This document shows positions 13,719 through 20,483 of a stretch of DNA of 64,000 nt, in pieces; positions within the stretch are counted from its first letter, which is position 1; every line of letters begins with the position of its first letter. Under the pieces are notes generated by a model that searched no databases, was not told where the DNA came from, and saw nothing but the letters and a program-made list of their open reading frames with translations. The DNA comes from Longimicrobiales bacterium (GTDB taxonomy: Bacteria; Gemmatimonadota; Gemmatimonadetes; Longimicrobiales; Gaopeijiaceae): assembly GCA_965215535.1 (NCBI GenBank), contig OZ244063.1:2440649-2504648 (forward strand), written 5' to 3'. The translations under genes and the position numbers were made by a program.

Positions 13719-14264
13719 CTACGGACGCCGTGCCGCAATTCCCATCACCTCGAAGCGCGCTCCGAAGAGCAGCGTGCCCGATCCCAGGAAGGCCCGCGCC
13801 GGAAACTCGCTCGTAAAGTAGGTGCGGTAGACGCTGTTGAAGGCGCCATAGTCGCCCACATCGGCTGCATAAACCTGCACCCACACAAGGTCGTCCATCG
13901 TGAGGCCGGCATCGGCGAGGGTGCTCTGAATGTTGTTCAGAACATTGGTGGCTTCGGCCTCGGCGGTTGCGGGCGGCGCTCCATTTTCCAGCCCCAGAGC
14001 TCCCGAGAGATAAAGAGTGCTGCCCACCCAGACCGCCCCGCTGAAGGGCGGCATCTGATCGCCATCGGCGGGCGAGCGCGGATTGACATGTCGGACCGCC
14101 ATATGCTCGGCGTGCATCTCTTCGTGCATGGCGTCGTCGTGGGCCATCTCCTGCTGCATGGCGCCCGTGTCGGCGCAGGCCAGCGTCAGGGCCAGCAGAA
14201 GCAGGCCGGTTGCCGGAAGGAGTGGGAAGCGGGTGTGGGGGCCGGTTGCTGACGGTGTGGTCAT
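13719..14264 (-). CDS. RidA/YjgF/UK114 family protein with signal/lipobox (LTLAC)
   Basis: The C-terminal roughly 125 aa match the RidA pattern (STLYLSGALG..., PARAFLGSG..., FEVMGIA). The gene lies 72 nt upstream of the aminotransferase on the same strand. Confidence 0.8.
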   Translation of the reverse strand: MTTPSATGPHTRFPLLPATGLLLLALTLACADTGAMQQEMAHDDAMHEEMHAEHMAVRHVNPRSPADGDQMPPFSGAVWVGSTLYLSGALGLENGAPPATAEAEATNVLNNIQSTLADAGLTMDDLVWVQVYAADVGDYGAFNSVYRTYFTSEFPARAFLGSGTLLFGARFEVMGIAARRP

Positions 14265-15720: not shown

Positions 15721-16125
15721 ATGACCGATTCTCCCTCTGTCACCCTTGAATGGCGCTATCACCGCCCCGGCTGAAATGGCTGCAAGCGTACGCAGGAGTT
15801 TCTTGCGCAGAATGAGGTTGCAGACGCCGCCGAGATTCGCAGCGCCACCCGCGATCCGGTTCAGGCCGCCGAGGTGCCGACGCTGCTGGCCGGAATCAGG
15901 GAACTGTGCGTGGCGCGCGGCAAGACGTTTGTGCGCCACAGCCTGACCGGCCCCGACCGCCCCGGAGACGACGAGATCGTGGCGATGGTGACGAGCCGCT
16001 GGGGCAAGCTGCGGGCACCCGCGCTACGGGTGGGGACGACCCTGGCGGTCGGCTTCAACCGGGAGATGCTGGAGTCGATCTTCACAGCTCGTGGATCACA
16101 CCAAGCGGCATTCGAGCGGCGCTGA
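15721..16125 (+). CDS. ArsC/Spx-like thioredoxin-fold protein with an in-frame TGA at 15772-15774 (candidate selenocysteine; alternatively a pseudogene)
   Basis: The ATG at 15721 gives MTDSPSVTLEWRYHRPG, followed by TGA and then NGCKRTQEFLAQNEV...GKLRAPALRVGTTLAVGFNREMLESIF, all in one frame. The TGA falls at the first position of the expected redox xxC motif. About the last 12 codons are supplied by the adjacent tandem repeat. Confidence 0.4.
15791..15807 (+). other. Hairpin 17 nt downstream of the in-frame TGA (bSECIS-like candidate)
   Basis: The sequence cgcagg-agttt-cttgcg forms a 6-bp stem (one G-U pair) with a 5-nt loop. An outer ctgc/gcag pairing could extend the stem. Confidence 0.25.
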
Positions 16126-16725
16126 ATCCGCGCTGGACGCTGCGCTCTGCGTTGCTCCTTGTCCACATAGCTGGGGCTATGCGGACTGCGAAGCGCCTTG
16201 CCAGCCCGGCCCATCGCCGCTCTCGGTGCGCACTTGGCGTGATCCACGAACTGTGGACAGCCCGCGATCACACCAAGCGGCATTCGAGCGGCGCTGAATC
16301 CGCGCTGGACCGCTGTGCTCTGCGTTGCTCCTTGTCCCCGTAGCTGGGGGCTATGCGGACTGCGAAGCGCCTTGCCAGCCCGGCCCATCGCCGCTCTCGG
16401 TGCGCACTTGGCGTGATCCACGAACTGTGGACAGCCCGCGATCACACCAAGCGGCATTCGAGCGGCGCTGAATCCGCGCTGGACGCTGCGCTCTGCGTTG
16501 CTCCTTGTCCACATAGCTGGGGCTATGCGGACTGCGAAGCGCCTTGCCAGCCCGGCCCATCGCCGCTCTCGGTGCGCACTTGGCGTGATCCACGAACTGT
16601 GGACAGCCCGCGATCACACCAAGCGGCATTCGAGCGGCGCTGAATCCGCGCTGGACCGCTGTGCTCTGCGTTGCTCCTTGTCCCCGTAGCTGGGGGCTAT
16701 GCAGGCTGCGTCGTGCCTTGCCCGC
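16084..16725. repeat. Tandem array of about 3.7 units of 172/174 bp in alternating A/B variants (higher-order period of about 346 bp)
   Basis: Unit phase markers 'gatcacaccaagcggcattcgagcggc' occur at 16094, 16266, 16440 and 16612. Each unit contains the 15-nt inverted repeat GTGGATCACaCCAAG / CTTGGcGTGATCCAC about 123 nt apart, plus a junction hairpin GTGATC..CCACgaactGTGG..GATCAC. Confidence 0.9.
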
Positions 16726-16843
16726 CGCGCGGATTCCTGATTTGCGACTGCGCGCCGCTGTTGCATTGTCTATCTTTCAGGGATTCCGCCGCGCTTCTGC
16801 GCGGTGCATCCCCACTGGTCCCGCATCCAGAGAGAATCTCGTC

Positions 16844-19744
16844 ATGCAAAAGCCCTCGTGCCGCACGATTCGCGTCGCCCTCATTCCCCTCCTGCTTCTC
16901 GGTGTTCTTGCGCATCCCGGACTTGCGCAACAGCGCGCCCTCGATCACGACGACGTGCTGCGCTGGAACACCATTGCCACCCCCGTTCTGTCTCCCGATG
17001 GTGCCTGGCTGGCCTTTGTTCTGAATGCCATGCAGGGCGATCCGTCGCTTACGATCCGTGCGGCGCGCGCAGGGAGCGAAGAGGTTGTACTGCGGGGCAC
17101 AGGGCCGCGCTTTACCCCGGATTCGCGCTTTGTGGTATGGAGTGTGCCGCCGGTCGAGGCGGTTGTGGATTCGCTGCGGCGCGAAGGTATGCGGGGCGAT
17201 GCGCTGCCGGGCGACTCGCTGGCCTTTGCCGAGGTGGAGTCGCTGCTGAATGGCGGTGCGCCGACCGTTCTGGGCGCGGTGAAGAACTTTCGGATTGCCG
17301 GCGAGGGAAGCTGGATCGCCTGGAAGCCCGCCGATCCGGAAGAGGACGCCGAAGAAGAAGAGGAGGAGGCCGAAGAGCCGGAGGAGGAGGCCGGGGGCGG
17401 CGGCGACGAGGATGATGAAGACGATGCGCGCACAAAGGAGGAAGGCTCTGCGCTGATTCTGCACAACCCGGGCACGGGCAGCGAGATGCGCCTGGAGAGG
17501 GTGACCGACTATTTTTTTGCCGAAGATGCGGCGACGCTGGTCTATGCGGTCTCGACGCGCAACGGCGATGGCGATGGCGTCTTTATGGCCTGGGCGGAGG
17601 GGGACAATGGCATGACGACGCGCTCGCTGCTCGAGGGCGAGGGCAACTACCGGCAGCTTGCGATCGCCGACGATGGCGGGCAGGTGGCCTTCCTGACCGA
17701 CCGCAACGACTACGAGGCCGATCAGCCCGAGTTCACCCTCTATCATGCGGCGGCGCCCTCGTGGTCGGCTGCGGGGTTGGCGAACTCTGCCACGGAGGGG
17801 GTGCCCGAGGGGTGGTGGGTGAGCGAAAATGGCGATGTGAGCCTTTCGGATGGCGGCGGCCGGGTGCACTTCGGAACCGCGCCGCGTCCCGAACCCGAGA
17901 ACGAGGATGCAGAAGAGATCCTGGAGCGCGACCGGGTTCGTCTCGATGTATGGAATTGGCGCGACCCGTATCTGCAACCGATGCAACTTGTGCAACTCGA
18001 TGACGAGCGTCGCCGGAGCTATGCGGCATTGGTGCATCTGGATGGAGGCCGGGTGGTGCAGCTCGCCACGCCGGAGCTTCCCACGGTGCGCTTTGCCGCC
18101 GAGGGCGACGCGACCCATGCGGTGGGTGCGACCGATGTGCCCTACCGCCAGCTTCTCTCGTGGGATGGGCGCTACAACGATGTCCATGCGATCGATCTGG
18201 CGACTGGCGAGCGCCGCCGGGTTGCCGAGAAGGTCAAGGGGTTTGCCGGAGCGCAGATCTCGCCCACCGGCGCGTATCTCTACTGGTGGGATGGCGATGC
18301 GCGTCACTGGATGGTGGCGGCCACCGCCGGCGGCGAAATCATGACGGCCAGCGCCGATCTTCCGCACCCCGTCTGGAACGAACTCGACGATCACCCCGAC
18401 CTGCCCCCCTCGTACGGGTCGGCGGGCTGGACCGAGGGCGACGAGGGATTCCTCTTCTACGACCGCTTCGATATCTGGCGCTTTGATCCGGCCACCGGCG
18501 CGACCACCAACCTGACCCAGGGCGAGGGCCGCGTCACCGGCACCCGCTTCCGCCATGTCCGCACCGACTTCGAATCCCCCGCGATCGCCGAGGGCGAGGC
18601 GCTCCTTCAGTCCTTTCACTACCTGGGCAAGCAATCGGGATTTCATCGGGGGCGCACCGACCGGGCCGCGACGCCCGAACCCGTGATTATGGCCGACAAG
18701 GTATACCGGATCCGGGGCAGGGCGGCCGACGCCAATCGCTGGCTCGTGACCCGCGAGGATTTTCGCGAATTCCCCGACCTTCAGGTCAGCGACGGCGACG
18801 ATGTGGGGCCCGCCCTGACCGACATGTTCAGAGTTTCGGATGCCAATCCGCAGCAGTCCGACTATCGCTGGGGAGCGGCCGAGATTGTGGAGTGGCACTC
18901 GAATGATGGCACCCCGCTGCAGGGAATTCTCTTTACTCCCGACAACTTCGACCCGTCCGCAAAGTATCCCATGATGGTGTATTTCTACGAACGCATGTCC
19001 GATGGCGTTCATCAGCACCGTTCGCCCCGTCCCGGCGGTTCGTCGATCTCGGTTCCCTTCTATGTGAGCCGCGGATATGTTGTCTTCATTCCCGACATTC
19101 CTTACGAGATCGGCTATCCCGGCGAGAGTGCGCTCGATGCGGTTGTGCCCGGCGTTCTCGGCCTGGTTGCGCGCGGCTTTGTGCAGGAAGACAAAATCGG
19201 CGTGCAGGGCCATTCCTGGGGCGGCTACCAGATTGCCTACATGATCACCAAAACCAACCTCTTCGCGGCGGCCGAGGCGGGTGCGCCGGTCAGCAACATG
19301 ACCAGTGCCTACGGGGGGATTCGCTGGCAGTCCGGCATGAGCCGCATGTTCCAGTACGAACGCACCCAGAGCCGGATCGGCGGCACCCTGTGGGAATCGA
19401 CCAGCGAATATTTGCACAACTCGCCCGTCTTCTACGCCGACAAGATCCACACCCCGCTCTTGATGATGCACAACGATGAAGACGGCGCCGTGCCCTGGTA
19501 CCAGGGAATTGAGATGTTCGTTGCCATGCGCCGCCTGCAAAAACCGGTCTGGATGCTCAACTACAACGGCCAGGGTCATGGCCTGAGCCGCGAAGCCGAC
19601 CGCAAGGACTGGTCGGTCCGCATGCAGCAGTTCTTCGACCACTACCTGATGGACGCCCCGGCACCGGTCTGGATGGAAGAGGGCGTGCCCGCGCTCCAGA
19701 AGGGGAAGACGCTGGGGCTGGAGGTGCGGAAGAAGGTGTCGTAA
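16844..19744 (+). CDS. Prolyl oligopeptidase (S9) family serine peptidase with N-terminal beta-propeller region, secreted
   Basis: The signal peptide is MQKPSCRTIRVALIPLLLLGVLAHPGLAQQ. The nucleophile elbow is GVQGHSWGGYQ, and the downstream HNDEDGAVP and GQGHGL motifs complete the triad. An acidic low-complexity insert DPEEDAEEEEEEAEEPEEEAGGGGDEDDEDD is encoded at about 17333-17445. Confidence 0.85.
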   Translation: MQKPSCRTIRVALIPLLLLGVLAHPGLAQQRALDHDDVLRWNTIATPVLSPDGAWLAFVLNAMQGDPSLTIRAARAGSEEVVLRGTGPRFTPDSRFVVWSVPPVEAVVDSLRREGMRGDALPGDSLAFAEVESLLNGGAPTVLGAVKNFRIAGEGSWIAWKPADPEEDAEEEEEEAEEPEEEAGGGGDEDDEDDARTKEEGSALILHNPGTGSEMRLERVTDYFFAEDAATLVYAVSTRNGDGDGVFMAWAEGDNGMTTRSLLEGEGNYRQLAIADDGGQVAFLTDRNDYEADQPEFTLYHAAAPSWSAAGLANSATEGVPEGWWVSENGDVSLSDGGGRVHFGTAPRPEPENEDAEEILERDRVRLDVWNWRDPYLQPMQLVQLDDERRRSYAALVHLDGGRVVQLATPELPTVRFAAEGDATHAVGATDVPYRQLLSWDGRYNDVHAIDLATGERRRVAEKVKGFAGAQISPTGAYLYWWDGDARHWMVAATAGGEIMTASADLPHPVWNELDDHPDLPPSYGSAGWTEGDEGFLFYDRFDIWRFDPATGATTNLTQGEGRVTGTRFRHVRTDFESPAIAEGEALLQSFHYLGKQSGFHRGRTDRAATPEPVIMADKVYRIRGRAADANRWLVTREDFREFPDLQVSDGDDVGPALTDMFRVSDANPQQSDYRWGAAEIVEWHSNDGTPLQGILFTPDNFDPSAKYPMMVYFYERMSDGVHQHRSPRPGGSSISVPFYVSRGYVVFIPDIPYEIGYPGESALDAVVPGVLGLVARGFVQEDKIGVQGHSWGGYQIAYMITKTNLFAAAEAGAPVSNMTSAYGGIRWQSGMSRMFQYERTQSRIGGTLWESTSEYLHNSPVFYADKIHTPLLMMHNDEDGAVPWYQGIEMFVAMRRLQKPVWMLNYNGQGHGLSREADRKDWSVRMQQFFDHYLMDAPAPVWMEEGVPALQKGKTLGLEVRKKVS

Positions 19745-19760: not shown

Positions 19761-20070
19761 GTGGATCGCCGAACCAACCCGTATGCGCCCGGGGTGGGAA
19801 CGCCGCCGCCGGAGCTGGTAGGCCGCGATGCGCTGATTGAGGATGCAGCGATTGCGCTGGACCGGCTCCGGGGCGGGTTGGCGGCCAAAAGCATATTGAT
19901 GATAGGGCTGCGCGGTGTAGGAAAGACCGTGTTGCTGAACAGGCTCGTTGCCGATGCGGAGCAGAGAAAATTCGAATGCGTTGTGGTTGAGGCTCCTGAG
20001 GAGAGGTCGCTGCCGGCGGCGCTGGCCGGTCCCCTGAATTCGGCGCTGATCCGCATGAGTCCCCCTCGAT
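19761..20070 (+). pseudogene. N-terminal fragment (about 100 aa) of an AAA/ORC-like ATP-binding protein
   Basis: A GTG start follows GGGGGAGGAG. The sequence NPYAPGVGTPPPELVGRDALIE...LMIGLRGVGKTVLLNRL contains a Walker A motif. Recognisable sequence stops after about 100 aa, although the frame runs on into the next gene. Confidence 0.5.
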
Positions 20071-20231
20071 CCCGCCCCTGGCACCCGCCACAACTCGCCC
20101 GTCCCCGCAGTTCTGGCGCAATCTCCGATTCCGACCGATACTTCAATGGAAGCCGGTCACCGCATTCTGGAGTGGCCCCGGCCTCACGATTCAATCCTCC
20201 ATCCCTCCATCCCCCTCACCGGCTTCCTTCC

Positions 20232-20483
20232 ATGCCCATCTTCGAATACACCTGCCTCGATTGCGGGCTTCACTTTGAGCGTCTGGTGCTGGGCGGTCGC
20301 ACGCCCACCTGTCCCGAGTGCGAAAGCGCGAAGCTGGAACGGCGGATGTCGCTGCCGCGCGTGAAGTCGTCGTCGACGCGCGCCATGGCGATGCGGGCGG
20401 CGAAGAAGCGCGATGCGTCGCAGGCGCGAGACCGCATGCACGAGCGGATCCGCTACGAGGAGAGTCACGATCGCCACGGTTGA
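20232..20483 (+). CDS. FmdB-family CxxC zinc-ribbon protein
   Basis: MPIFEYTCLDCGLHFERLVLGGRTPTCPECES has two CxxC pairs and the canonical N-terminal MPIxEYxC signature. Confidence 0.75.
   Translation: MPIFEYTCLDCGLHFERLVLGGRTPTCPECESAKLERRMSLPRVKSSSTRAMAMRAAKKRDASQARDRMHERIRYEESHDRHG

Follow-up and report, generated by a model that had tools for sequence, protein, structure and literature searches.

The gene located at positions 15721-16125 (+ strand) of a 64-kb stretch of DNA from a Longimicrobiales bacterium (contig OZ244063.1), referred to below as the window and with a G+C content of 64%, very probably encodes a selenoprotein. As judged by comparison with its orthologues, the product would be a 134-residue cytoplasmic protein of the ArsC/Spx superfamily, with a thioredoxin-like fold, in which the in-frame UGA codon at 15772-15774 is read as selenocysteine (Sec, U18) by means of a selenocysteine insertion sequence (SECIS) element placed downstream. 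The gene starts with ATG and ends with TGA (16123-16125), its product matches the curated NCBIfam model NF041106, and the orthologues display the same architecture. The predicted Sec would be the first residue of a UxxC redox motif, and its partner (resolving) residue would be Cys21 (TGC, 15781-15783), which is invariant in all copies.

Reading frame of the gene

The frame that begins at the ATG at 15721 reads MTDSPSVTLEWRYHRPG and then reaches the TGA at 15772-15774, after which the same frame continues as NGCKRTQEFLAQ...LRAPALRVGTTLAVGFNREMLESIF... (the continuation is also given as NGCKRTQEFLAQNEV...GKLRAPALRVGTTLAVGFNREMLESIF...) until the TGA at 16123-16125. The original prediction, made from the letters of the window, had described a frame open from 15721 to 16125 with a single TGA at this place, and this was confirmed. 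It had also described the open reading frame (ORF) that begins at 15874 as ATG-initiated, and this detail had to be corrected to GTG. This ORF, of 83 codons, is the only one that a mechanical list gives in the frame of the selenoprotein.

Public gene calls miss the recoding. Most of them comprise the C-terminal 80-94 residues and start downstream of the TGA, while others start right after it (M-x-C-K...) or show W at this position, and few are full-length. If the TGA at 15772 were a true stop codon, the real gene would be the ORF that begins with the GTG at 15874 and the upstream frame would be noncoding, and the public collections do contain exactly this 83-residue call (P0001), together with the similar 80-94-residue calls for the orthologues. 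This possibility is extremely unlikely, since protein-level conservation, accompanied by synonymous variation, extends in 87 copies over the 17 codons ahead of the TGA and over the 33 that separate it from the GTG. Strand 1, the active-site motif and helix 1 are all encoded there, and the alignment with the curated model begins at residue 9. According to the structure model described below, the 83-residue product would lack all these elements, that is, half of the domain. The comparative data already contradict the reading of this TGA as a stop.

Conservation of the recoding site

The set of 87 copies analysed consists of the window and the loci fetched from databases, some of which duplicate one contig. 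The codon that follows the invariant WRYHRPG motif is TGA in 86 of these copies and TGT (Cys) in the remaining one, so that only Sec or Cys would occupy the first position of the N-terminal xxC motif of NF041106. A scan of reference genomes yielded 80 loci, all of them with TGA after WRYHRPG (80/80), as is also the case in the metagenome copies. Most of the 80 loci belong to metagenome-assembled genomes (MAGs) of Longimicrobiales/Gemmatimonadota, many of them from sponges and marine samples, and a few bins are labelled Vicinamibacteria, Latescibacterota, Marinacidobacterium or Gammaproteobacteria. The same in-frame TGA after WRYHRPG was seen at the DNA level in loci L001 and L003, and an ATG is found 5-16 codons ahead of the conserved Trp in 78 out of 88 copies. 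From these data, the Sec form appears to be fixed in Longimicrobiales (80/80 reference loci).

Coding conservation was observed on both sides of the in-frame UGA. The codons for WRYHRPG (15751-15771), which would correspond to strand beta-1 and the loop toward the active site, are invariant as protein, and the entropy at the third codon position (H3) for R, Y and P is 1.31, 0.99 and 1.64 bit. Synonymous variation under an invariant peptide points to purifying selection at the protein level upstream of the supposed stop, and it bears out the earlier expectation that the N-terminal codons would be conserved.

An in-frame stop could also result from decay of the gene into a pseudogene, or from a sequencing or assembly error that has turned TGC or TGT into TGA. 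Either could account for one in-frame stop in one MAG-like sequence, and there is one homologue with TGT at this codon. Nevertheless, this explanation is vanishingly unlikely and already refuted by the orthologues. The TGA is shared by 86/87 copies, which come mostly from independent assemblies of several phyla and sequencing projects, and for this reason a read error or a pseudogene can be ruled out; in addition, the frame is intact on both sides of the codon.

Cysteine homologues align with the UGA codon, forming a Cys/Sec pair. In the Cys form of the family, protein P0006 encoded by locus L006, the Sec position is occupied by a true Cys codon (TGT), giving HRPGCTSCK. The best 150 family representatives retrieved in an exhaustive search with P0006 include 47 full-length proteins of the CxxC form, 10 with W at the Sec column, 28 that start immediately after this column and 63 that start further downstream. 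This pattern looks like that of a classic Cys/Sec family whose Sec members have been mis-called. The alignment of Cys with the TGA, which had been proposed as a check, was therefore obtained at three levels: the TGT of L006, the 47/150 CxxC representatives and Cys10 of Spx.

Stem-loop downstream of the UGA codon

The candidate upper stem-loop of a bacterial SECIS element is located at 15791-15807, within the codons for T-Q-E-F-L-A, where a hairpin had been predicted. It is formed by CGCAGG (15791-15796), the loop AGUUU and CUUGCG (15802-15807), with 16 bases between the TGA and the stem, and the folding energy of the isolated stem-loop is -7.1 to -8.2 kcal/mol. The stem-loop follows the UGA directly and has a G in the apical loop (AGUUU), this G, and then a U, being placed about 23 nt after the UGA. 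In the consensus model of the bacterial SECIS, the G/U of the apical loop lies 16-37 nt after the UGA, a range into which the window hairpin fits.

A comparison was carried out with 70 distinct sequences covering positions -9 to +56 around the TGA. The helix formed by +19..+24 and +30..+35 was paired in 99.8% of the cells. Two compensatory double changes were found, A-U to U-A in the Cys form L006 and G-C to U-A in L066 (a synonymous ACG to ACT change plus Ala to Glu), and a G-U/A-U toggle splits the sequences 36/34. All five pairing measures were above those of 500 shuffles and of slid controls, and sliding of the 3' partners collapsed the pairing. The third-position entropy was 0.00-0.10 bit at the Thr, Glu, Phe, Leu and Ala codons of the element, against 1.1-1.75 bit at four-fold sites of the invariant Gly, Arg, Pro and Ala codons in other parts of the gene. 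The codon choice inside the element was also unusual, with Phe TTT 82:1 and Leu CTT 82:1, compared with TTC 41:2 and CTG/CTC elsewhere in the same genes. Conserved pairing together with frozen synonymous sites is the signature of a bacterial SECIS, and the compatibility of the hairpin with such an element, claimed in the original prediction from its distance to the TGA, is upheld by the pairing, the compensatory changes and the frozen sites.

Another conserved structure was considered and not adopted. A mini-hairpin that encloses the UGA itself was proposed by RNAalifold (alignment columns 7-10 with 16-19; window 15769-15781), and it lacks double-sided covariation. It has 4-6 bp, with GGCU/AGCU-type arms and the UGA in or beside the loop, and displays one-sided changes only; its conserved pairs could be explained by the amino-acid constraint.

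Protein family and fold

The window protein, with U read as C, passes the model NF041106 (ArsC_rel_Se_1, "ArsC family (seleno)protein") with 93.5 bits over a cut-off of 85 (E = 1.1e-26), residues 9-116 being aligned on model positions 1-106 of 107. Its assignment to an ArsC/Spx-like family, which had been made from sequence motifs, is borne out by this curated model. In a search with a profile built from six family members, Spx was the nearest solved structure (E = 1e-8). In this profile alignment U18 corresponds to Cys10, C21 to Cys13 and KLRAP to LLRRP of Spx, and UxxC matches, column for column, the N-terminal redox switch C10-T-S-C13 (residues 10-13) of Spx. The residues R98-A99-P100 (16012-16020) of the invariant GKLRAP block occupy invariant alignment columns and are aligned to the LLRRP motif of Spx/ArsC; we take them to be the cis-Pro loop that faces the active site in the thioredoxin fold.

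A confident structure model was obtained with AlphaFold2 (AF2) for P0006, a natural Cys homologue with 47% identity to the window protein. The model, with a predicted local distance difference test score (pLDDT) of 94.5 and a predicted template modelling score (pTM) of 0.87, contains a strand at residues 3-9, Cys13 and a helix at residues 14-25, so that the Cys is at the first turn of the helix, directly after the strand. A redox motif at the N-terminus of helix 1 and following strand 1, as in thioredoxin-fold oxidoreductases, is therefore found in the P0006 model. Because this model places the Cys after strand 3-9, the residues ahead of the TGA in the window are predicted to encode the central beta-1 strand. 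A Foldseek search with the P0006 model gave Spx as the top match, followed by ArsC-family proteins and glutaredoxins, with template modelling (TM) scores of about 0.55.

Decoding of the UGA codon

The proposed decoding is that the UGA at 15772-15774 is read as Sec through the stem-loop placed 16 nt downstream, inside the coding sequence, which would bring SelB, loaded with Sec-tRNA(Sec), to the ribosome. Termination would take place at the second TGA of the gene (16123-16125), which is not followed by such a stem-loop element. The terminal stop is TGA in 60 out of 88 orthologous copies, and therefore one and the same mRNA holds a recoded and a terminating TGA.

Several results weigh against the proposal that this gene encodes a Sec-containing redox protein of the ArsC/Spx type. 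With regard to the stem-loop, a 75-nt fold of the window sequence alone was no better than shuffles (z = -0.02), so that the significance of the hairpin comes only from the comparison of orthologues. In that comparison the covariation is thin, consisting of two single-sequence events and one toggle with most pairs invariant, and the frozen synonymous sites are a stronger signal. No Rfam family matched the hairpin at the gathering threshold or at E <= 10, as expected of bacterial SECIS elements, which are particular to their own gene families; the only Rfam hits were chance microRNA/small RNA matches inside a tandem repeat located further downstream. With regard to the family, the Pfam ArsC model PF03960 was missed (18.7 vs 24 bits, E = 0.0022), with 77/79 model positions covered. 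The models for Spx/MgsR (TIGR01617, 21.8 vs 75 bits; NF002459, 18.9 vs 123) and the arsC equivalog (TIGR00014, 12.3 vs a cut-off of 106 bits) were missed as well. Membership of the family does not reveal which biochemical activity the protein has. The window protein is best regarded, from its sequence, as a distant member of the PF03960 superfamily rather than as a non-member, and its homologues P0005, P0006 and P0030 have precomputed PF03960 matches. With regard to the genes nearby, no redox partner and no ars genes (arsR, arsB, acr3, arsA) were linked to the selenoprotein gene.

The search for the Sec machinery belongs to the same side of the balance. ARAGORN detected no tRNA gene, and hence no tRNA-Sec, either in the 64-kb window or among 60 related loci. 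When the window and about 1.7 Mb of related loci were searched by tblastn with Escherichia coli queries, no homologue of SelA, SelB or SelD was obtained. Weak matches to GTPases, with about 26% identity, were taken as other translational GTPases and rejected as SelB. One of the orthologues, locus L025, lies on contig MPNE01000027.1 of the Gemmatimonadetes MAG bin94, for which one copy each of SelA (COG1921), SelB (COG3276) and SelD (COG0709) is listed in Table S4 of Slaby et al. 2017 (PMC5649159); most of the sponge-symbiont bins of that study have SelA and SelB together (PMC5649159). We infer the capacity of the source genome for Sec decoding from the conservation of the site across 80 genomes and from the presence of SelA, SelB and SelD in this one relative.

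The UGA could instead specify another amino acid, either Trp or Gly by a reassigned genetic code, or Trp or Cys by near-cognate read-through that does not depend on a SECIS. The public calls P0005, P0007 and P0030 translate this codon as W, and the Sec machinery was not seen for the source genome in the 64-kb window that was searched. Even so, this alternative is highly improbable. TGA is the commonest stop codon in the window (14 out of 28 ORFs in a crude gene call based on the G+C content of third codon positions, GC3), and it ends this gene and the 60/88 orthologous copies already mentioned, so that the genetic code is the standard one, in agreement with the earlier remark that TGA is otherwise a stop here. 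Full-length homologues carry Cys at the Sec column. The only W calls are 10 WxxC/WxxS proteins, and in the one that was checked in DNA, the full-length P0005, W appears only because a TGA was read with another code. Furthermore, a co-varying stem-loop with frozen synonymous sites is present at the SECIS distance, and bin94, a relative, has SelA, SelB and SelD.

Predicted function

With Sec at position 18, the U18-N-G-C21 redox centre would follow strand 1 directly, at the N-terminal end of helix 1, and would face the conserved R-A-P loop. The selenolate of U18 would most likely attack a disulfide or an oxidised substrate, and C21 would then resolve the intermediate as a selenenylsulfide. We infer from this arrangement that the protein is a small selenol/thiol-disulfide oxidoreductase. 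Two more specific functions have been weighed, and both are minority readings.

The first one is that the selenoprotein catalyses glutaredoxin-coupled arsenate reduction, like the ArsC of plasmid R773, rather than general disulfide exchange. R773 ArsC contains the motif YH-NPA-C-GT-S-RNT. The motif of the window protein, YH-RPG-U-NG-C-KRT, resembles it, U aligns with the nucleophile column of ArsC/Spx, and arsenate-reductase-like selenoproteins are listed in PMC2398784. This function is nonetheless unlikely, considering that the TIGR00014 score given above (12.3) is far from its cut-off of 106, that a true ArsC has only one Cys (the selenoprotein group "ArsC 1" of PMC2398784 being UxxS) while the motif found here is UxxC, and that RidA, a lipoprotein beta-propeller and an S9 peptidase, instead of arsR, arsB, acr3 or arsA, are found nearby.

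The second function is that of an Spx-like selenoprotein, redox-switched and able to bind RNA polymerase and reprogram transcription. Spx is the nearest solved structure both by sequence and by fold, and its C10xxC13 switch aligns with UxxC. Spx is a system of Firmicutes. The TIGR01617 and NF002459 scores are well below their cut-offs, the TM-scores are only about 0.55, and the window protein stops right after the core domain and is devoid of the Spx C-terminal tail, all of which make this function quite unlikely. A particular version of it, an Spx-type selenocysteine redox sensor of Gemmatimonadota that would bind RNA polymerase or another regulator and switch on formation of the selenenylsulfide, is very doubtful; if it were true, it would be the first selenoprotein transcription regulator.

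Genomic context

The genes found around the selenoprotein gene code for a class I/II aminotransferase, RidA, a beta-propeller lipoprotein and a peptidase of the S9 family, and an ars operon is absent from this neighbourhood, which points to no substrate. The beta-propeller protein has 448 residues and a lipoprotein-like signal (LAAC), and its coding sequence stops 30 nt ahead of the selenoprotein gene. The order RidA (divergent), beta-propeller lipoprotein, selenoprotein and S9 peptidase is kept in the closer clade and lost in the distant clade, and for this reason synteny was not used to propose a functional partner.

RidA (Endoribonuclease L-PSP, PF01042) adjoins the ArsC-like gene in the window (13719-14264, - strand) and in the loci L001-L047, L075 and L082, but not always in the same way. 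In the Longimicrobiales clade it is divergent and upstream, and in the Cys-form contig L006 (506-886) it is located directly downstream and on the same strand. This adjacency may be coincidental or may point to a functional link.

The loci L055, L060, L064 and L065, from bins labelled Gammaproteobacteria, are near-identical in sequence and context to Gemmatimonadota copies such as L056, L069 and L072, and these contigs may have been mis-binned.

Tandem repeat and other features of the window

A tandem array is located at 16094-16726, with an inverted arm from 16083, and consists of 3.7 copies of a unit of 172-174 nt with 95% identity. The 35-mer GATCACACCAAGCGGCATTCGAGCGGCGCTGAATC recurs at 16094, 16266, 16440 and 16612. 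Each unit of the array is a long imperfect palindrome, with a folding energy of -100.7 kcal/mol for the segment 16083-16256. At the last ~10 codons of the selenoprotein gene, which the array overlaps, the usual ending ..ESVFGVGQS* is replaced by ..ESIFTARGSHQAAFERR*. The array also fills an intergenic gap of 535 nt, compared with about 150-185 nt in L001 and L003. Partial copies of the array, with 77-93% identity over 40-110 nt, were found in the Gemmatimonadota loci L007, L035, L042, L020 and L046. The array matched no Rfam family and looks like a dispersed palindromic element of the type of miniature inverted-repeat transposable elements (MITEs) or repetitive extragenic palindromic (REP) sequences. 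The mechanical GTG start (16661) of the ORF 16661-19744, which encodes the S9 protein (prolyl oligopeptidase family), lies inside the repeat; the start of this gene is more likely about 61 codons further in, at the signal-peptide-like sequence MQKPSCRTIRVALIPLLLLGVLAHPGLAQQ.

A second selenoprotein was sought in the window with two scans, based on GC3, for frames that look coding but contain a TGA, and nothing beyond noise emerged; the candidates of these scans were rejected as antisense frames, upstream extensions or, in one case, an integrase whose start follows the TGA. A zinc-ribbon protein of the FmdB family (MPIFEYTCLDCG...CPECES) is encoded at about 20232-20483 (+ strand), inside the ORF 19761-20483. 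The FmdB family includes Sec-containing members in the Global Ocean Sampling (GOS) study (PMC2398784), and this gene was discarded as a second selenoprotein gene because the form present in the window and in L001 is all-Cys. In the ORF list of the window, FmdB is joined in frame to a fragment upstream of it that contains a P-loop motif (GLRGVGKT) and resembles an ATPase remnant. At about 39.4-40.7 kb (+ strand), a translation that by eye resembles a tyrosine recombinase/integrase (…HETGHRIGAIRQLRWSDID…WHSLRRKFASDL…) suggests that a mobile element has been integrated there, and the in-frame TGA upstream of it is not a Sec candidate.

Annotation and comparison with known selenoproteins

Dozens of orthologues in Longimicrobiales/Gemmatimonadota MAGs are truncated or W-translated in the public collections, and correction of these calls would restore the active site and mark these lineages, mostly marine and sponge-associated, as selenocysteine users. 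The locus also offers a very clean SECIS inside a coding sequence, with ~18 nt that are nearly invariant across genomes whose proteins are only ~50% identical, and selenoprotein finders could be trained or benchmarked on it. What is new here is bookkeeping only, namely the apparent fixation of the Sec form in Longimicrobiales and the truncation of the public gene calls, and nothing is added to the general knowledge of selenoproteins.

The window hairpin resembles bacterial SECIS elements (E. coli fdhF type; bSECISearch consensus) in being a stem-loop immediately 3' of the UGA and within the ORF. It differs from the consensus in its short helix of 6-7 bp and in having no obvious bulged U, and its role as a SECIS in this gene is a prediction. 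Its apical G is about 4 nt further from the UGA than in E. coli fdhF. The role of such stem-loops in bacterial Sec insertion is described in PMC9312934.

With respect to Spx (Bacillus subtilis, Streptococcus; PDB 1Z3E, 3L78, 6GHB), the window protein has UxxC in place of the CxxC at 10-13 and KLRAP in place of LLRRP, but it is below the family cut-offs, has no C-terminal tail, and shows only ~20-24% identity and a TM-score of ~0.55. The likeness to NF041106, the name of which denotes Sec or Cys members, is closer: 106/107 model positions are matched and there is no substantive difference, apart from the last ~13 residues (TARGSHQAAFERR), which are atypical owing to the overlap between the gene's 3' end and the tandem palindromic repeat.

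Proteins of this kind have been described in surveys of selenoproteins. The GOS selenoproteome includes "Arsenate reductase 2, cd03032 (ArsC_Spx), UxxC", with 42 Sec sequences and 238 Cys homologues, and a separate "ArsC 1" group with UxxS (Zhang and Gladyshev 2008, PMC2398784), so that the statement in the original prediction that ArsC-like selenoproteins have been reported from marine metagenomes was correct. A review published in 2022 has an entry "arsenate reductase-like protein, COG1393, UxxC" (PMC9312934), and neither of these works gives a function for the UxxC proteins. By their description, the published UxxC entries share with the window protein the superfamily assignment, the motif, an origin in marine or uncultured bacteria and the existence of Cys homologues. 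The gene belongs, as a typical member, to a known family and uses a known mechanism, and the family, the motif and the mechanism have all been described already.

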